The notes under the pieces: model-generated | What the model saw: only the letters and a program-made list of their open reading frames with translations | What the model was told of the DNA's origin: nothing | Database searches by the model: none | In this document: in pieces, positions 37,504 to 45,413 of the stretch | Layout of the letters: each line of letters begins with the position of its first letter | Numbering within the stretch: position 1 is the first letter of the stretch | Made by a program: the position numbers and the translations under genes | Assembly: GCA_048885925.1 (NCBI GenBank) | Contig: JBHLLG010000004.1 | Coordinates: 41,617-105,616 of the forward strand | Source: Candidatus Hermodarchaeota archaeon | Lineage (GTDB): Archaea > Asgardarchaeota > Lokiarchaeia > Sigyniarchaeales > SOKP01 | Length of the DNA: 64,000 nucleotides | Direction: 5' to 3'

Positions 37504-38640
37504 TTAATATTTTGAAGGAGTTTTCGATTTAATTTTATGCTTTGGTATAGTTTTAGTTTTCTTTATTTCCCTTTCAAAGTTTCTTTTTTCATTTAGAAAT
37601 CTTTGCTTATCCTGTTCTAATTTTTCTCTTTCACGTCTGATGATACTTTTCTCATTTTCTAAGTATGACTTTTCTTTTTCTAATTGTCTATAATCATTAT
37701 TTAATTTACTAAATTTTTCTTCTAATTTTGGGATTTTAGAGTTTAAGGAGTGATAAGTACTTTCTGCTCGAGGTAGCTTTTTCTCTAATTCATTTAATCT
37801 TGCTTCATGTTGCTTTCTTCTTTTTTCTAAATCTTTTACATCTTTTTCCATCTTTTCTTTAGCTTTTCGGAGATCTGCATTCTTTTTATCAATTTCACGA
37901 GCTTTTAGATCTAAATCTTGTTTTCTATAACGAGTTTTTTCTCTTTCTTCTTTCAATTTTTTTTTCTCGTCAGAGATTCGATTTTTTTCATCATTAATTT
38001 CCCTTTTTAAATTACTAATTTCTCTATCTAAATTATCTCTCTCTTTAGTTAAGTGTTTAATTTCATTTCTCAAATCCATTAACTTATCTTCTAAATTATT
38101 TATAGTTCTATTTAAAGCATCCTCTCTTCTTTCCATTCCGGGAAGTTTTGTTTTAATTTCTTTAATGCGATTTTCTGTGTTTTCTTTTTCTTTCTCTAAT
38201 AAATTCTTTTCTTTTCCTATTTGTTCTCGAACTTTATTTAATTTTTCTTGGAATGTTTCTAATTCAGCTTTTTTTTGATTTAACTCTTCATTTCTTCTTC
38301 TGAATTTTTCTTTAAATTGTCTTTCTTTATTAGTTAAATCATCATTTTGCTGTTGAATTTTACTCTTTAGATAATTTAATTCTTTTTCTAGCTTATCGCG
38401 TTTTTCAAGAAGATCTTTGATTTCTAATTCTCGATTTTTTCTTTTTTTTTCAAGATCTTGGACATTATCTTTATAATCTTGAATTTGTCTAACAACTTTT
38501 TCCCATTCGGTTTTTTCTTTATCTAATTTAACTCTTTCTTTTTTTATTTTTTTAAGTAGTTTTTTATCGGAAATTACTTCAATTTCCTCTTCGGGTGTTT
38601 TTTCTCGAATTTGATATTTAGGAATAGTTTCGTCATTCAT
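37504..38640 (-). CDS. Long coiled-coil protein
   Basis: Heptad-rich K/E/R sequence across about 330 aa, no ATPase motifs. Confidence 0.8.
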   Translation of the reverse strand: MNDETIPKYQIREKTPEEEIEVISDKKLLKKIKKERVKLDKEKTEWEKVVRQIQDYKDNVQDLEKKRKNRELEIKDLLEKRDKLEKELNYLKSKIQQQNDDLTNKERQFKEKFRRRNEELNQKKAELETFQEKLNKVREQIGKEKNLLEKEKENTENRIKEIKTKLPGMERREDALNRTINNLEDKLMDLRNEIKHLTKERDNLDREISNLKREINDEKNRISDEKKKLKEEREKTRYRKQDLDLKAREIDKKNADLRKAKEKMEKDVKDLEKRRKQHEARLNELEKKLPRAESTYHSLNSKIPKLEEKFSKLNNDYRQLEKEKSYLENEKSIIRREREKLEQDKQRFLNEKRNFEREIKKTKTIPKHKIKSKTPSKY

Positions 38641-38850: not shown

Positions 38851-39252
38851 ATGGGTTTTGATGATGATTTTGATGAAGATTTTGATGAAGAGCTAGACGA
38901 AGATTTGGATGAGGATTTGGATGAAAAAATAGAAGAACCTGCTTCAAAAGCTCCTACAGAAGTAGTTGAATCAAAAACTCCTGCAACTAAAGTTATTGTT
39001 GAGGGAAAAAAGATATCATTATATTTTATGTCGACAATAGGACCTGGAGAAAAAAAGCAAAAATTACTCGTAAATACTGGAAATAATGTTGGAGATGTTA
39101 AAGAAACTGTAGCAAACTTATTTGGATTAGATCCTGCTGATTTTCATTTATCATCTGGTGGAGTTACAATGGATGAGAATTCATATTTAAAAGATTATAA
39201 TATAAGTGATGGTGACGATATACTTTTAATTCCAGCGAGTACAGCTGGTTAA
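38851..39252 (+). CDS. Ubiquitin-like modifier 1 with acidic N-terminal extension
   Basis: Beta-grasp pattern LYFMST...VGDVKE..A...L..GG.TMD...LKDYNI.DGD.ILL ending STAG. Confidence 0.85.
   Translation: MGFDDDFDEDFDEELDEDLDEDLDEKIEEPASKAPTEVVESKTPATKVIVEGKKISLYFMSTIGPGEKKQKLLVNTGNNVGDVKETVANLFGLDPADFHLSSGGVTMDENSYLKDYNISDGDDILLIPASTAG
38857..38928 (+). repeat. Six degenerate 12-bp coding repeats, (F/L)D(D/E)(D/E/K)
   Basis: tttgatgatgat tttgatgaagat tttgatgaagag ctagacgaagat ttggatgaggat ttggatgaaaaa. Confidence 0.75.
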
Positions 39253-39297: not shown

Positions 39298-40092
39298 TTA
39301 ACTCTTTTCTTTTCTTGAGGGAATTAGAGCAATTTCATCATCTTCGCTTATATCATAATCTTTTATTTGTAAGGTTTCATTCAATAATATTCCTCCAGAA
39401 GAAAGAAGAAAAGATTCTAGATCATAATCAAACAGTTTACCAATTCTCTCCTTAATTAAACTTAGTAATTCCATTCTCTCAATGATAATTATTTTTGTTT
39501 TTTCTCCAGGTTCAAGTAAAGACCTTACATAAACGCGGGTTTGATCTTCAAGGTCAATAGGATTTATAGGTGGTGTATATACAATATCTTCATCAACTCT
39601 ATCTCTATTCTTTAGCATATTTTCAATCAATACTTTTCTTTCATGTGAATTAAAATAAATCATTTCTCTAATAAACAAAATCTTATCCATTTTTGATAAT
39701 CCGAGAAGATTTATCTTATCCAATTCTTCTTGGCTAAAAATTGAAAAAATATATTTATCAATTATCGGCTTATCCTTATATGATTCATTCGATTCAATAT
39801 ATTCTTCTATTGAAGGCATAGCTTCAATATAATCATCAAAAATGCTAGTAGGTATCCTTTTAATTGATTTTTTTTCTGCAATAAACTTTTTTTTTCGTAC
39901 CTTGTCACCCCAATTATCTTGAGATTGAATAATAGTATAAATGGTACTTGTAGATAATATTGCTACACTCCCAATTGTGAGAGAAAAAAATAATGGAATA
40001 CTGTCTATACGATAAAAGAAAAAAGCTACATAAGCTAAAATAAAAAAAATATAAAGTGCAAAAACACTAAAAATTCTATATTTTTTCCTCAT
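39298..40092 (-). CDS. 2-TM membrane protein with C-terminal ubiquitin-like domain lacking a terminal Gly
   Basis: PGEK...IKE...LF..D...F.LSSGG..L.E...IKDYDISEDDEIALIPS matches the flanking Ubls; ends RKEKS. Confidence 0.8.
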   Translation of the reverse strand: MRKKYRIFSVFALYIFFILAYVAFFFYRIDSIPLFFSLTIGSVAILSTSTIYTIIQSQDNWGDKVRKKKFIAEKKSIKRIPTSIFDDYIEAMPSIEEYIESNESYKDKPIIDKYIFSIFSQEELDKINLLGLSKMDKILFIREMIYFNSHERKVLIENMLKNRDRVDEDIVYTPPINPIDLEDQTRVYVRSLLEPGEKTKIIIIERMELLSLIKERIGKLFDYDLESFLLSSGGILLNETLQIKDYDISEDDEIALIPSRKEKS

Positions 40093-40177
40093 AATTTTTT
40101 AAATAGATTTTGTTCTGAATTCTAAATATTTAATTTGACATATAAATTCCATTGGAATAAATTTGAAGTTTTAATAT

Positions 40178-40849
40178 TCATACTCCTTGAATTGATTTTT
40201 TAACTTGAGAATATTTTTCTCTATCTAACCTAAATAACTTTCTTTTTCCATCTTCTTCGATTCTTATCAATTTCAGATCTTTTAGAATATCTAAATATTT
40301 TTTTATAATATTATGATTTTTTTTCAAATTGACAGATATTTCTGTAATTTTCAGTTCTTTATTTGCTTCTTCCATAAAATTAATTATTTTTTGAACGATT
40401 TTCTTCTTCAAATAATAATATAATTCATCAAATTCAGGATTTGAATCAAATTTAAAGAAAATTCTGTGATTATTGATTTTTTTTGATCTAACAAAATTAA
40501 ATTTTTCTAAGCAGGATAAATGCCATAAAACTTGGTTGCTTCCGATATTTAAAACTTTCATTATTTTGTTAATATTAGATGGATTCTTTTTAATATAATT
40601 TAGGATCTCATTTCTAGTAGGATTTTCAACTATATTATTTTTCATTAGTCTAGTTCCAGGGATAATAATACGTCTTTTTAGTAACTTCTTTAAAATTAAC
40701 TCTATACTATTTTCGTTAATATTAGGATTATATTTTACCCTATTATTTATATAGGATATAATGTCTCTTATCGAAAAAAAGCTCTTTTTTGTTAAATACT
40801 CCTCTACTAATTCAAGAACAATAGGTTCAATATTATTAAGAGAAGTCAT
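40178..40849 (-). CDS. Tandem winged-helix transcriptional regulator
   Basis: ENPTRNEIL.YI..NP...WHL..LEK and a second wHTH. Confidence 0.8.
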   Translation of the reverse strand: MTSLNNIEPIVLELVEEYLTKKSFFSIRDIISYINNRVKYNPNINENSIELILKKLLKRRIIIPGTRLMKNNIVENPTRNEILNYIKKNPSNINKIMKVLNIGSNQVLWHLSCLEKFNFVRSKKINNHRIFFKFDSNPEFDELYYYLKKKIVQKIINFMEEANKELKITEISVNLKKNHNIIKKYLDILKDLKLIRIEEDGKRKLFRLDREKYSQVKKSIQGV

Positions 40850-41118
40850 AATCCTATATTATTAATATGTTGAAATTTAATGGGTTTTATAATTAAATAT
40901 TCTCTCTAATACAACATTTTATATTTTATATATATTAATAGGCATTCATACAATTTATAATATAATTTATTGAAATTCATAATTTCTCCATTTTATTCGG
41001 GATAAAGATCTGAAAAAACTTCAAAATCATTCCAAAGGGTTTTATAATATTTTTTTAACGCTATTTTATTAAATTTAACAAAATTAAAAAATCAAATAAT
41101 TAAAAAAAAGTGATATGA

Positions 41119-41451
41119 ATGAGTTTTGATGAATTTGATGAGGATTTAGGGATGGAGGAACCAGTAAAATCTAAAACTCCCGCTACTAAAATTCCTTCCG
41201 CAGGAAAGAAATTGACTTTATATTTCATGTCTACCATCGGACCTGGTGAAAAAAAGGAAAAATTAACTGTTAACGATAACAATCGTATAAGAGATATTAA
41301 AAATACATTAGGAAATTTATATGGACTTGATCCTAATGATTTTCATTTATCTTCGGGTGGAGTTACAATGGATGAAAATAGTACATTAAAAGACTATAAT
41401 CTTAATAATGGTGATGATATTCTTTTAATTCCTGCTAGCACAGCTGGATAA
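41119..41451 (+). CDS. Ubiquitin-like modifier 2 with acidic N-terminal extension
   Basis: Close paralog of 38851-39252; ends ILLIPASTAG; directly upstream of E1. Confidence 0.88.
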   Translation: MSFDEFDEDLGMEEPVKSKTPATKIPSAGKKLTLYFMSTIGPGEKKEKLTVNDNNRIRDIKNTLGNLYGLDPNDFHLSSGGVTMDENSTLKDYNLNNGDDILLIPASTAG

Positions 41452-41529: not shown

Positions 41530-42765
41530 TTGGTGTTTATATTGAAAAATAGGTCAGATTTTTTTAGTAAAGAGCTAACAACGGAAGAGAAAAAATTATA
41601 CGACCGCCAATTTAGGCTTGAAGGATGGTCGCAAAAATTAGTAAAGAATTCTCGCGTTTTAATGATAGGTGTAGGAGGATTAGGGTGCGAAATTGCAAAG
41701 AATCTAGCAATGCTAGGAGTAGGGCATTTAGATTTAGTAGATCTTGATATCATTGAACATTCAAATCTAAATCGCCAAATCTTATTTGCTGGAGCAAAAG
41801 TAGGAGAATCAAAAGCACTTGTTGCAGCAAGAAAATTAACTGAAATTAACCCTAATACTATAATAAAAGGTTATCAAACTTCCCTAGAACGATTAGATCC
41901 AAGAATATATCGCGCTGCAGATGTTGTTATTGGTGGGCTTGATTCCATGAATGCTCGGTTGAATTTAAATGCTCAATGTATAAGATTTAGAAAACCATTA
42001 GTCGATGGAGGTGTATCTGGCTATCATGGTCATGTTTATACAATTTTTCCATTTAAAAATGCATGTTATGAATGCAATCCACTTCCGGTTGGAGAAAGTG
42101 ACGAAATGGCAGCGTGCACAGTAGTAGGCGTTCCTAGAAAGAGAATCCATTGCGTTTTTAAAGGAGACATGGCGTTTAAAGAAAATTTTGATAGAGATCC
42201 TAATCCAAAAAATATCAATGATATCAAATTTATACAAAAAGTTGCTAATGAATTAGTAAATAAACATAATTTTCTTCCGGAGTATACCGAAGATGATATT
42301 GTAAAGATAATTGATCGACATGATCCAGGAATAATTACCATAAATGCTGTCATTTCTGCGTTACAATCACATGAAGTTGTAAAAATCCTTCATTGGAAGA
42401 AAGGTCATACAGGTTTAGGTGAGCCTATTACTGATTATGTTATTTTCAATGCAATGACAATGATGTTTTATCATATTGAGAAAAAAAAAAATCCAGAATG
42501 TTCCCAATGCGGAAAAAATGTCCGGAGATTTTTAGTTAAATTAAGAAAAACTTCCCCTTGTATTAATATAATAAAAACTTTAGAGAAGCGTGGTTTTAAG
42601 CTAGATTCTGATCTAGAACCAGTATTAACATTAGTGGATTTTAATGATGTTAAGATGATAGATTTAGACCAGAATCCAATTGAAAATTGCTTAAGAGATT
42701 ATGAATTTATGACGGCTGCTGGATTTAAGGAAGGAGAAATTTTTGTAACTTTAAAATTGAAATAA
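41530..42765 (+). CDS. E1 ubiquitin-like activating enzyme (UBA3/UBA2-like)
   Basis: YDRQ, GVGGLG, DLD..E.SNLNRQ, CYEC/CSQC Zn site, catalytic AACTVVGVPR...HC, C-terminal extra domain. Confidence 0.9.
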   Translation: MVFILKNRSDFFSKELTTEEKKLYDRQFRLEGWSQKLVKNSRVLMIGVGGLGCEIAKNLAMLGVGHLDLVDLDIIEHSNLNRQILFAGAKVGESKALVAARKLTEINPNTIIKGYQTSLERLDPRIYRAADVVIGGLDSMNARLNLNAQCIRFRKPLVDGGVSGYHGHVYTIFPFKNACYECNPLPVGESDEMAACTVVGVPRKRIHCVFKGDMAFKENFDRDPNPKNINDIKFIQKVANELVNKHNFLPEYTEDDIVKIIDRHDPGIITINAVISALQSHEVVKILHWKKGHTGLGEPITDYVIFNAMTMMFYHIEKKKNPECSQCGKNVRRFLVKLRKTSPCINIIKTLEKRGFKLDSDLEPVLTLVDFNDVKMIDLDQNPIENCLRDYEFMTAAGFKEGEIFVTLKLK

Positions 42766-42875: not shown

Positions 42876-43403
42876 ATGAGTATAAGAAGTAGTCGAATAT
42901 CTCAAGATTTTGCGGGATTAAAAAAGTTATATAAAGATGGAACTATTGTCCAGTTAAAACCATTTAATCCCAATAGAAAGAGTATTGATCATTTAGCTAT
43001 CACTATTAAAGGTCCTAAAGGTACTGCCTATTCAGGAGGTCTTTTTAAATTAGAAATGAGATTCCCTGCACAGTATCCCAAACAGCCACCTTTTGTTAGA
43101 TTGCACACTCCAATCTGGCATCCGAATTTTTGGGCAAAACCTAGTGAATATAAAGGCCAGAGGAATATTTGCTTAGCATTAGTAGATCCCTCATTAGTAG
43201 GCAAAAAAGGAGGATGGAGCCCATCAAAAACAGCTGTGACAGTTGTTCAGGCTATAATTGCTATGCTGAACACAAGGGGTAAATATGTAAATCCCACTGA
43301 TGTTTTTAATAAAAAAGCAGCGATAGAGATGATGAAAAATCAAAAATTGTTCGAGAAAAAAGTAAAAAACTTAGTTAAAAAGTATGCAAATAAAAAGTGG
43401 TGA
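42876..43403 (+). CDS. E2 ubiquitin-like conjugating enzyme
   Basis: GP.GT.Y.GG.F, FP.QYP..PP, WHPN...ICL, WSP. Confidence 0.93.
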   Translation: MSIRSSRISQDFAGLKKLYKDGTIVQLKPFNPNRKSIDHLAITIKGPKGTAYSGGLFKLEMRFPAQYPKQPPFVRLHTPIWHPNFWAKPSEYKGQRNICLALVDPSLVGKKGGWSPSKTAVTVVQAIIAMLNTRGKYVNPTDVFNKKAAIEMMKNQKLFEKKVKNLVKKYANKKW

Positions 43404-44227
43404 AATTTAAGATGGGAGAGGATAATTCACATTTAGACTCTATTAAAGAAACAATAAAGAAGAAAATTAAAGATGTAATTAAGAAGGAATTGTTAGAAGA
43501 AATCTATGAAGAATTAAAAATGGAAGAGAAAGAGTTAGTAGATGAAATTAGTTCAATGATCTCTAAAAAAGATCCTGAAACCCAAACGATAAAGCATTCA
43601 ACTACTCCAGCCAATTCACAATCAATAAAGGAAGAACAAAAAATTATTTTTGAAGATAAAATAGAAAAAGAAGTATATATTTCAGTCAAGGCAATATTAA
43701 AAGTAGCTAGTCATGCTCTTAAATACGCTAATTCTAAAATTCCAAAAAAAAGTTGGGTGGAAGTAATAGGATTACTAGCAGGTAAATTAGATAATAAAAA
43801 TGGTATTTTACACATTGAGGATTATTATCCAATGGGTCATGGAACAGCTGTTTATGCTGAAATAAAAGATTATCGAAACTATGCTAGGGCATTCCGAGAT
43901 ATTAAAAAACAACAGTTATTTATCTGTGGTTGGGCACACAGCCATCCTTCTTATGGTTGTTTTATGTCTAATGAAGATATTGGTACTCAAGCAAGATATC
44001 AAAAGCTCTGGGATAAAGCTGTTGCCCTAGTTATCGATCCGTATCTTATTGATGGAACTTCAGCTGGTTTTGAAATTTATCGTGCTGATTTAGCTTCAAA
44101 AACGTGGTATCCTTTAGTATATGGTATTAAAGGTTCATTAGATATTCGGATGTTACCAGAAATACTTAATTTTATGAATCCAATAATTGAAGGCAAACCC
44201 GTATATCTCGAATATGATGAAAATTGA
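43397..44227 (+). CDS. JAMM/MPN+ isopeptidase (Rpn11/CSN5-like) with helical N-terminal extension
   Basis: EVIGLL.G, GWAHSHPSYGCFMS.EDI.TQ..YQ, ALVIDP. Confidence 0.92.
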   Translation: MVKFKMGEDNSHLDSIKETIKKKIKDVIKKELLEEIYEELKMEEKELVDEISSMISKKDPETQTIKHSTTPANSQSIKEEQKIIFEDKIEKEVYISVKAILKVASHALKYANSKIPKKSWVEVIGLLAGKLDNKNGILHIEDYYPMGHGTAVYAEIKDYRNYARAFRDIKKQQLFICGWAHSHPSYGCFMSNEDIGTQARYQKLWDKAVALVIDPYLIDGTSAGFEIYRADLASKTWYPLVYGIKGSLDIRMLPEILNFMNPIIEGKPVYLEYDEN

Positions 44228-44255: not shown

Positions 44256-45413
44256 GTGGCTAAAGTTAAATCTGTTGCAATTGTTCTAGGGATATTTTCA
44301 TTAATAGGCATAATACATGGTGTTATTTCAAATTCTTTTAACATATTTATAACTTGGGTATTAATTGGAATCTGGTTGATTTATTCTTTTAAAGTATTTA
44401 AAAATATTAAGCAGTATCGCGAATTTAATTCTCCTCATAATACTGCTTTCTTTATTATAAGTCCTATTTTTGTTGGAATTTTTTATTCAATTTGGAGTAA
44501 TTTTACTGGTATATTGGGAGAGAATCTTTTAGAAGGTTCAGATTTATATTTAAGTTGGTGGAGTATATTATTTGGTTTTCCGTATGTGTTATATGGTTCA
44601 ATATCATTATATCGTTGTTTTAAAAAATACCATGTAATTTATTTTGGTACAAAATCAATAAAAGCCCGTACTTTTGGATATATCTTAGGTCTATCAACTA
44701 TAATTTTTATAATTATCTATTGGATAAGTTTTTATTCTGTTGTTGACTTTAGTGAATCTTTACTAACACCTCTCCATTTTCTAATAGATCTCAATCTTCT
44801 CATATTCCTTATTAGTACTATTTTAATATTAATTGTCCCCGGATTAATTGGAGGTCAAACCCGTCTACCACAATTAAGTAGAGACTATATTTCACAACGA
44901 ACACGTAGATTAAGCCGATTAACTTCACCTAGAATAACCTCAACTCCTCGTAGGCAGAGAGAAAGTTCTCGTAGTTCATCTAGATCTTCTCCCTCTCCTT
45001 CAATTAGTACAAGTACTCGCACATCGAGATCAGTAACTCATTCAGTAAGATCCACACCAAAAGCAAACAGAACAACTGTAAGTTCAAGAGCTAAAGCATC
45101 CACTCGAACTGTACATAGAAAAAATTTAGATCTATACAAACCTAAAGCCGCAAGTTTATCACCGGAAGACTTTAAATGCATTTTTTGTTTTAAATTACCG
45201 GAATTACCTAAAGATAATGGTAGAGGCATAGTACTATGTCCAAAATGTAGGTATCCTGCCCATGCAGATGAATTCAAAGATTGGCTTTCAAACTCTAACC
45301 TTTGCTCTCGATGTAATGCACCTATTTCAGGAGGTTTTAGAAGAAATCCTAGAATTATTAGTGTAAAAAATTATTTAATAATTTATAGAGATTTTCTAAG
45401 GAGAGGAAGATAG
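44256..45413 (+). CDS. Polytopic membrane protein with C-terminal RING-like domain (putative E3)
   Basis: About 6 TMs, S/R/T-rich linker, CIFC-x16-CPKC-x4-H...W...CSRC. Confidence 0.8.
   Translation: MAKVKSVAIVLGIFSLIGIIHGVISNSFNIFITWVLIGIWLIYSFKVFKNIKQYREFNSPHNTAFFIISPIFVGIFYSIWSNFTGILGENLLEGSDLYLSWWSILFGFPYVLYGSISLYRCFKKYHVIYFGTKSIKARTFGYILGLSTIIFIIIYWISFYSVVDFSESLLTPLHFLIDLNLLIFLISTILILIVPGLIGGQTRLPQLSRDYISQRTRRLSRLTSPRITSTPRRQRESSRSSSRSSPSPSISTSTRTSRSVTHSVRSTPKANRTTVSSRAKASTRTVHRKNLDLYKPKAASLSPEDFKCIFCFKLPELPKDNGRGIVLCPKCRYPAHADEFKDWLSNSNLCSRCNAPISGGFRRNPRIISVKNYLIIYRDFLRRGR

Follow-up and report, generated by a model that had tools for sequence, protein, structure and literature searches.

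In a 64,000-nucleotide stretch of contig JBHLLG010000004.1 of Candidatus Hermodarchaeota archaeon (assembly GCA_048885925.1, positions 41,617 to 105,616; hereafter the window), we analysed a gene for a membrane protein that ends in a ubiquitin-like (Ubl) domain, here called the tethered Ubl. The source genome is that of a low-GC (about 28%) Loki-type Asgard archaeon. As the original prediction made from this DNA had stated, and as the map of open reading frames (ORFs) bears out, the gene lies between the genes of two free Ubl modifiers, the second of which opens an operon that continues with genes for an E1, an E2, a JAMM protein and a RING-like membrane protein (Table 1). Directly upstream of the tethered-Ubl gene is the gene of a winged-helix protein, and it is to this protein, rather than to the E1, E2 or JAMM, that the evidence points as the tightest partner of the tethered Ubl.

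Table 1. Genes, protein segments and putative promoters around the tethered-Ubl gene, numbered from the first letter of the window.
Feature	Position	Strand	Remarks
Coiled-coil gene	37504-38640	-	conserved neighbour
Free modifier 1	38851-39252	+	133 aa, C-terminus ASTAG; convergent with the tethered-Ubl gene
Tethered-Ubl gene	39298-40092	-	open ORF, 264 aa; stop codon 39298-39300
Variable basic tail SRKEKS	39301-39318	-	replaces the modifiers' ASTAG; without conjugatable Gly
Ubiquitin-fold (beta-grasp) domain, aa 184-258	39319-39543	-	paralogous to the free modifiers
Segment joining module to Ubl, aa 167-183	39544-39594	-	residues 169-184 within the predicted interface
Helical 'receptor-tail' module, aa 85-166	39595-39840	-	predicted dock for the winged-helix protein
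Lys/Arg-rich juxtamembrane linker, aa 56-84	39841-39927	-	predicted disordered; 9 Lys/Arg within residues 60-85
Two-helix membrane hairpin, TM1 ~aa 7-27, TM2 ~aa 32-55	39928-40074	-	from model, hydropathy and flanking charges (TM, transmembrane)
Tethered-Ubl promoter	40140-40168	-	putative; CTTCAAATTTATTCCAA (40168 to 40152), then TATA-like TGGAATTTATAT; ~50 nt before ATG
Winged-helix gene	40178-40849	-	223 aa; directly upstream of the tethered-Ubl gene, same strand
Operon promoter (Ubl2-E1-E2-JAMM-RING)	41019-41048	+	putative, from cross-locus conservation; CTTCAAAATCATTCCAA (41019-41035), then GGGTTTTATAAT
Free modifier 2	41119-41451	+	110 aa, C-terminus ASTAG; opens the enzyme operon
E1 (ThiF)	41530-42765	+	Pfam ThiF 9.1e-59
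E2 (UQ_con)	42876-43403	+	Pfam UQ_con 3.7e-26
JAMM/MPN	43397-44227	+	Pfam JAB 5.9e-14
Polytopic membrane protein with RING-like finger	44256-45413	+	zf-RING_16 13.6 bits, below cut-off

Anatomy, C-terminus and distribution of the tethered Ubl

An AlphaFold2 model of the protein, built on an alignment of 36 orthologues, had a mean predicted local distance difference test (pLDDT) score of 64.8 and showed N-terminal helices at residues 2-26 and 32-60, a stretch predicted to be disordered at residues 57-114 (pLDDT below 50), three short helices within residues 121-161 and a C-terminal beta-grasp fold (strands 184-191, 200-205, 228-232 and 252-258, helix 210-221; pLDDT 70-86). The two N-terminal transmembrane helices named in the original prediction are borne out by the modelled helices and by hydropathy, with a mean Kyte-Doolittle value of 2.54 over residues 7-25 and a second hydrophobic segment from residue 29. 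The net charges of the hairpin (+4 ahead of both helices, 0 for the loop of 7 residues and +6 behind), read with the positive-inside rule, indicate that both of its ends are cytoplasmic. Further along the chain, Y172 and P175 in the segment that connects the module to the Ubl domain are conserved among orthologues.

Residues 187-259 align without gaps both to free modifier 1 (28/73 identities, E 4e-16) and to free modifier 2 (26/73 identities, E 5e-15), so that the domain is 36-38% identical to the modifiers that flank it, which are 67% identical to each other. The motifs PGEK, LSSGG, KDY.I and LIP are conserved at 80% or above in 68 tethered and 116 free copies, and the lysines K198 and K200 in the beta1-beta2 loop and K214 in the helix are likewise conserved in tethered and free copies; these alignments support the earlier claim that the C-terminal region is a Ubl domain alignable with the free modifiers. 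In a Foldseek search of the PDB, the best match was Caldiarchaeum ubiquitin (6fno_D, E 3.9e-7; TM-score on target 0.79, rmsd (root-mean-square deviation) 1.4 over 78 columns), and ubiquitin, SUMO, NEDD8 and ISG15 made up the top matches. The Pfam ubiquitin profile PF00240 scores 22.9 bits (E 7.5e-5), below its gathering cut-off of 25.4, and the ubiquitin-fold assignment therefore stands on paralogy and fold, not on Pfam, although the PF00240 label is precomputed on many orthologues. At E up to 0.1, a Pfam scan of the whole protein returned ubiquitin and DUF2614 only, with no UBX profile.

The terminus of the tethered Ubl reads LIPSRKEKS, where the free modifiers read LIPASTAG. Among 74 public loci that we sampled, 68 have a full-length tethered-Ubl gene, and in these 68 orthologues the tail after LIP consists of SRK and zero to eight variable residues. 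An AS[TIV]AG end, with or without a short extension, is found in 0/68 of them as against 126/128 neighbouring free Ubls, and a Gly occurs as the final residue by chance in only 3/68 (for example, SRKDRG and SRKNRG). Having lost the reactive Ala-Gly end, the tethered Ubl should be unable to be activated or conjugated, and processing to a conjugatable end is ruled out because the tail is without any conserved Gly. The search also met other Ubls that are extended N-terminally, namely fusions to Roadblock, fusions to a zinc ribbon with a coiled coil, and poly-Ubl proteins of two or three units. In all of these the terminus is STAG, either final or followed by a short extension, so the loss of the reactive end is specific to the tethered-Ubl family. 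Judged from these alignments, the tethered Ubl is a diverged, non-conjugatable copy of the cell's own modifiers, and the central claim of the original prediction, that of a membrane-anchored, non-conjugatable copy of the Ubl of the locus, holds both for the anatomy of this protein and for the tail across the 68 orthologues.

The tethered Ubl is full-length in 23/23 sampled genomes of the same genus and occurs as a single copy in 91/153 genomes of the order, all of them in one family and four genera. Within this family it is found in 90/133 genomes, the genome of the window excluded, and is unevenly spread over the genera (g1 48/52, g22 35/42, g21 4/10, g15 3/6); with this query, it was absent at E up to 1e-25 from other genera and from the remaining families (f2 0/14, f3 0/1, f4 0/4). 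The operon E2 is present in 127/153 genomes of the order, including genera in which the tethered Ubl was not found (g16 4/4, g17 2/2, g23 5/7) and the other families (f2 7/14, f3 1/1, f4 2/4). Because the E2 is far wider in distribution, the tethered Ubl is an accessory and not a core part, a role as a core pathway component or core adaptor being ruled out by the same figures. As far as can be judged from these occurrences, it is an addition made by one subclade to an older conjugation cluster.

Helical module, predicted winged-helix partner and shared promoter element

At every sampled locus with room for it (66/66), the winged-helix gene stands less than 300 bp upstream of the tethered-Ubl gene on the same strand, a count that includes locus L046, where 800 bases are masked and the gene is an 89-residue remnant. 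Where 7 kb or more of room is left, the E1, E2 and JAMM genes lie alongside in 46/49 loci (the exceptions are L046, L050 and L052), and the RING protein in 38/49 at the score threshold used, with more found by tblastn. Absence of conserved linkage to the locus had been named beforehand as grounds for giving up the original prediction; the 46/49 loci show that the linkage is conserved. The convergent free Ubl is found within 400 bp in 57/63 loci with room and the coiled-coil gene in 58/59, and the deepest orthologue (L103, 36% identity) retains the arrangement. In the three loci without adjacent E1-to-RING genes, the winged-helix gene still adjoins the tethered Ubl.

The winged-helix protein is a triple winged helix with an ArsR/SmtB-like middle domain. 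Pfam HTH_5 matches residues 76-122 (E 1e-10; 41.7 bits, over the cut-off of 22), a PDB match is the ArsR-family regulator 2p4w (E 0.0058), and its best family matches, although mostly below cut-offs, are all to DNA-binding families (ArsR/SmtB, SdpR and Sso10a).

The complex between tethered-Ubl residues 78-264 and the winged-helix protein was predicted from alignments of 39 rows each, alongside three controls. The pair reached an interface score (ipSAE) of 0.75 (0.77, 0.72 and 0.75 in separate runs), while the best of the three controls scored 0.01; in calibration the mark for this score was reached by 116/157 solved complexes and 2/215 mismatched pairs, figures that are only a rough guide here since our own alignments were used. 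The runs agreed in at least 89% of contacts, and the partner had a pLDDT of at least 84. On the anchor side, the predicted interface spans residues 85-184, that is, the module and the segment toward the Ubl; on the winged-helix side, it comprises residues 15-31 and 47-73 of the first winged helix and 93-129 of the second, the last stretch including the invariant GSNQALWHLSCLEKF inside the HTH_5 match. The Ubl core (185-258) and the third winged helix of the partner lie outside. Residues invariant across the module family (K137, F140 and R152) fall in or beside the predicted interface, as do the orthologue-invariant F116, Y146 and E151 of the anchor and F24, F25, S26, P64-T66 and L108-S112 of the partner. 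Since no solved relative of the module was found, the score is unlikely to be remembered from a solved complex. Taken together, the predictions make docking of the winged-helix protein on the module probable. Should its second winged helix read DNA in the manner of ArsR, binding of the module and binding of DNA would be mutually exclusive.

The module recurs outside the tethered Ubl. A search of 1.84 billion representative sequences gave 61 matches at E up to 0.001, many of which cover only residues ~78-164 and do so through the extreme C-termini of proteins of 413 to 1912 residues. These module-bearing proteins are single-pass surface proteins whose ectodomains are of beta-helix/NosD, laminin-G, WD40-type propeller or Ig-like type, and their tails are built alike: the TM helix, which has the motif IGSxxxxSxxxxY, leads into a linker rich in Lys, and the module follows, usually behind a zinc finger of Cys/His type. 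The same alignment consensus, IGSxxxxSxxxxY, is met in TM2 of the tethered Ubl as IGSV..LS....Y. By this recurrence the module is a separable unit, and the large Asgard surface proteins that share the tail could form a family of transmembrane signalling receptors. The Cys/His finger of the tails, C.VHRG...CP.C...YC.RC...CW.C, is found in P0152, P0158, P0169, P0172, P0176, P0177, P0179 and P0181, and has only weak RING, B-box and zinc-ribbon matches in Pfam.

Comparison with known families and folds gave no name to the module. It has no match in Pfam or NCBIfam (the best Pfam score, 19.7 bits to TRI4_N, is below cut-off), and a search of the ESM Atlas yielded no usable match. A model of the module alone (pLDDT 76.3) found nothing in the PDB with Foldseek (best E 2.7) and only generic three-helix bundles in a wide VIA-align search of the PDB (best Z 5.3, rmsd 2.7, 48 aligned residues), and these fold searches give no basis for either claiming or excluding a UBA, CUE or anti-sigma fold.

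Within this genome, a hidden Markov model (HMM) of the module matches the tethered Ubl (6.7e-32), a 433-residue surface protein on contig C104 (1e-8) and, weakly, an 89-residue ORF, and nothing else; a place for the module in the RING protein of the window was not borne out by this genome-wide search. The gene that lies 4 bp downstream of that of the 433-residue protein, in the same orientation, encodes the closest paralogue of the window's winged-helix protein (phmmer E 1.5e-28). In 40 related genomes, 43 distinct ORFs other than the tethered Ubl match the module, and among the matches listed a winged-helix paralogue lies directly downstream on the same strand of 20/43, and of 19/25 when only ORFs of at least 290 residues are counted; these counts are approximate and may err in either direction.

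The tethered-Ubl gene appears, from its upstream sequence, to have its own promoter, as the 85 bp that separate the stop codon of the winged-helix gene from the start of the tethered-Ubl gene hold an element followed by a TATA-like box. This element has two mismatches to the element of the operon promoter and the same spacing from the TATA-like box. Ten-mers of the operon element are found in 39-43 of 58 orthologous intergenic regions, and across the 68 loci (1.12 Mb) 91/107 matches to CAAWWTYRTTCCA fall at just these two sites, the operon promoter accounting for 51 and the tethered-Ubl promoter for 40; ahead of the tethered-Ubl gene, the degenerate pattern is found at -50 in 41/68 loci. The consensus profiles of the operon promoter (52 loci) and of the tethered-Ubl promoter (47 of 68 loci) agree, the conserved parts being two half-sites, yTC(C)AA, that form a direct repeat about 10 bp apart with a variable spacer. 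Nine sites in this genome match the 17-mer element at up to two mismatches, four of them directly before a TATA box: those of the operon, the tethered-Ubl gene, the third free Ubl of the genome (contig C11, 0 mismatches) and a small ORF on contig C1.

This small ORF (C1:302965-303321; L106:463-795, minus strand) has the element and TATA box at two mismatches; it and its neighbour (L106:147-374) are paralogous, encode 110 and 75 residues with the motif ..ERHPVY..LL.EF.., and have no NCBIfam match. Two copies of the 12-mer GGGTTTTATAAT are found between the divergent winged-helix and operon genes, at 40882-40893 near the winged-helix start and at 41037-41048 in the TATA region of the operon, and only the latter copy has the shared element ahead.

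Proposed function and alternatives

We propose, as a reading whose complete chain we consider evenly balanced between right and wrong, that the tethered Ubl is the membrane anchor of the cluster's regulator, with the Ubl domain as its input handle. The hairpin, with both N- and C-terminus inside, would hold the basic linker, the helical module and the ubiquitin fold against the inner side of the membrane. Winged-helix domains 1 and 2 would be clamped by the module together with the segment behind it, so that the ArsR-like recognition helix is covered, and a protein of DNA-binding type would thereby be retained at the membrane and probably away from DNA. When free, the regulator would act on the direct-repeat element directly before the TATA box of the four promoters, and anchor and regulator would together exert feedback on the ubiquitin-like system as a whole. 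The weakest step is the role of the Ubl as input, which we regard as tentative and rather less than an even prospect when taken by itself. The domain follows immediately on the predicted clamp and has retained the face that is conserved in the free modifiers, with its loops and lysines, so that proteins that bind or modify Ubls could displace or remove the anchor; the E1, the E2 or the membrane RING, by building chains on the conserved lysines, or an unfoldase or protease, might in this way free the regulator.

Several observations weigh against this anchor-regulator proposal. Within the window itself, the 17-mer at up to three mismatches has 2 matches as against 1.44 expected (41/100 shuffles reach 2), and the 12-mer TATA motif has 4 as against 1.2 expected (9/100 shuffles reach 4); neither is above chance, and the weight of the element therefore comes only from its position across loci. 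That the winged-helix protein is the reader of the element is something we infer from gene adjacency, and its binding of DNA is only presumed, since its NCBIfam scores are below cut-offs (ArsR/SmtB 42.7 bits, cut-off 55; SdpR 33.9, cut-off 100). As for the pairing, 23/43 module ORFs are without a winged-helix neighbour among the matches listed (14 of 71-100 residues, 3 of 164-171 residues and 6 large), and one of these large ORFs (L027, 612 residues) has no winged-helix gene within its 5 kb. Finally, the alignments used for the complex prediction were in the same locus row order, which lies outside the calibration of the tool.

The original prediction saw in the protein a decoy, adaptor or tether that recruits the E1, the E2, the JAMM or an AAA ATPase; these are probably not its primary partners. 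In line with that idea, a membrane protein with a cytoplasmic integral Ubl could be an adaptor of the kind known from endoplasmic-reticulum-associated degradation (ERAD) that works with the RING-like membrane protein and brings the E2, the JAMM, a Cdc48-type ATPase or the proteasome into contact with membrane substrates, with the winged-helix neighbour as a conventional regulator. The architecture fits such a role, as do the conserved loops that the domain retains from the free modifiers and the presence at the same locus of the E1/E2/JAMM genes (46/49 loci) and of a membrane RING-like protein (38/49). However, the conjugation enzymes are widespread without the tethered Ubl, and three loci keep the winged-helix gene, the tethered Ubl and the first free Ubl without E1-to-RING alongside (one of them being L046, with its masked bases). 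Moreover, more than half of the cytoplasmic part consists of a module with a conserved winged-helix partner, and an adaptor role explains neither the module nor the distribution; the Pfam scan at E up to 0.1 also showed no homology to HERP, Usa1, TMUB or UBX proteins. We consider an adaptor of this type improbable.

The winged-helix protein might also have nothing to do with transcription and be a protein scaffold, like the tandem winged helices of cullins or of ESCRT-II (endosomal sorting complex required for transport), in which case the anchor would display a permanent Ubl to readers such as Asgard ESCRT-I/II. Asgard UEV-domain proteins are reported to interact with ubiquitin, and Asgard ESCRT-II has tandem winged helices (PMC9192718, accessible part), both of which speak for such a platform; so does a predicted interface that uses the face of the 'recognition helix' for a protein contact, together with winged-helix family matches that are below cut-offs. 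Against it stand the identity of those matches, the best of which are all to DNA-binding families, and the conserved element that joins the anchor gene to the enzyme operon and calls for a shared transcription factor; in addition, the ORF list of the window shows no ESCRT gene in the immediate surroundings. We give a platform without transcriptional function little credence. A still slighter likelihood attaches to the notion of a membrane-anchored chain primer, in which the E1, E2 and RING would build chains of modifier on the lysines of the Ubl and the JAMM could not cut the poly-Ubl off at its base. The conservation of K198, K200 and K214 in tethered and free copies favours this, as does a base without Gly, hence without release at a Gly end, but the module and the obligatory winged-helix neighbour are left unexplained by a primer alone. 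Priming of chains is compatible, and overlaps, with the input step of the anchor-regulator proposal.

The anchor-regulator proposal can be extended to an archaeal forerunner of the ubiquitin-controlled release of membrane-held transcription factors, a possibility that we deem rather unlikely. Here, chains on the lysines of the Ubl, or competition when free modifier is scarce, would pull the anchor off the regulator, and the ubiquitin-like system would thus gauge its load and adjust its genes accordingly; in addition, receptor-tail modules and the winged-helix proteins paired with them would represent an undescribed family of Asgard transmembrane signalling pairs.

The cluster recalls the ubiquitin operon of Caldiarchaeum subterraneum, described in the accessible parts of two papers as comprising Ub, E1, E2, a small RING and Rpn11 (PMC5654768, PMC6043591). 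The tethered Ubl shares with it the beta-grasp, for which Caldiarchaeum ubiquitin is the best structural match, and the same type of cluster. It differs in being without the reactive Gly and fused to a hairpin and module, a component not listed in the accessible parts of those papers. More broadly, the tethered Ubl joins two known kinds of protein, the integral Ubl-domain protein and the membrane anchor of a regulator, inside an archaeal ubiquitin-like cluster.

Of the first kind, HERP, Usa1, TMUB1/2 and Dsc3 are eukaryotic membrane proteins with an integral Ubl that are partners of membrane RING ligases. MUB/UBL3 proteins are membrane-anchored ubiquitin-fold proteins (PMC6158211, accessible part). 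The tethered Ubl is like all of these in concept, in that it has an unconjugated ubiquitin fold on the cytoplasmic face of the membrane and a membrane RING-type ligase in its system, but its Ubl is C-terminal and there is no sequence kinship with them beyond the ubiquitin fold. Unlike MUB/UBL3, it has no CaaX box (it ends in RKEKS, with no Cys) and is anchored through an N-terminal hairpin, and unlike the HERP/TMUB group, it has as its partner, by conservation and by prediction, not an E2 or E3 but a winged-helix protein, which a separate module would bind. The analogy to MUB, HERP and TMUB drawn in the original prediction is thus apt for the concept of an integral membrane Ubl, whereas homology to these proteins was not found and the CaaX end is missing.

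Of the second kind, anti-sigma factors paired with extracytoplasmic-function (ECF) sigma factors and the PtsG-Mlc pair are bacterial examples in which regulators are sequestered at the membrane. In the SdpI-SdpR system, likewise bacterial, a transcription regulator is sequestered at the membrane (PMC2910880, accessible part). The resemblance to SdpI-SdpR lies in a membrane protein encoded beside an ArsR/SdpR-like winged-helix protein, in predicted cytoplasmic binding and in an autoregulatory layout. On the other hand, the tethered Ubl has no homology to SdpI or anti-sigma factors in the Pfam, NCBIfam and fold searches, no extracellular sensor and a ubiquitin-fold domain, and it is archaeal. 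Ubiquitin-dependent release of membrane-bound transcription factors is known for Spt23/Mga2, for Nrf1 and for fission-yeast SREBP with the Dsc ligase. With these it would share the concept of a membrane-held factor coupled to ubiquitin enzymes, a membrane RING ligase and a Ubl-bearing subunit; unlike them, the factor would be a separate soluble protein docked on the anchor rather than a membrane-spanning precursor, with a coupling to the Ubl system that we infer.

A literature search that left most subscription journals and supplements outside its reach brought up no publication describing an Asgard Ubl that is anchored in the membrane and non-conjugatable, and the terms 'membrane-anchored' and 'ubiquitin-like' are not present in the accessible part of PMC9192718. 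Asgard ubiquitin-like clusters are models for the origin of eukaryotic ubiquitin signalling. If the proposal is true, it would be the first proposed control circuit for an Asgard ubiquitin-like system, and the ubiquitin fold as a built-in domain, not a tag, would already have been present in archaea. The pairing of module and winged-helix protein also offers a testable handle on how signals may pass from large surface proteins to genes.

Related ubiquitin-like proteins and neighbouring genes

The third free modifier of this genome lies on contig C11 (289-618), and in all three free modifiers the terminus is Ala-Gly (ASTAG) instead of Gly-Gly. Their N-terminal extensions are acidic and lead into a KSKTPATK-like motif. 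Several proteins of the locus share a short (K/R)(S/T)KTP motif: the coiled-coil protein has it close to either terminus (..REKTPEEE.. and ..KSKTPSKY), and it is also found directly ahead of the fold in the free modifiers and in N-terminally fused Ubls.

The Ubl family also occurs in multiple and fused forms (P0135, P0145, P0138, P0147 and P0160; loci L021:2624-3454, L022:2353-3174 and L025:2213-3961). Poly-Ubl proteins carry two or three copies head to tail, each unit ending in STAG. The Ala-Gly end is kept in C-terminal Ubl fusions to a Roadblock/LC7-like domain and to a zinc ribbon with a coiled coil, as well as in such a fusion to a 583-residue protein, which adjoins RING/JAMM/E2/E1 genes in another family. 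The RING-like protein of the window, the last gene product of the operon, has a long, low-complexity linker rich in Ser, Thr and Arg, and a C-terminal finger. The syntenic loci L049, L073, L080 and L082 are filed under other Asgard phyla or, in one case, under a bacterium (Nanopelagicaceae); they show the same Loki-type cluster, and the filing probably reflects differences in labelling or binning.

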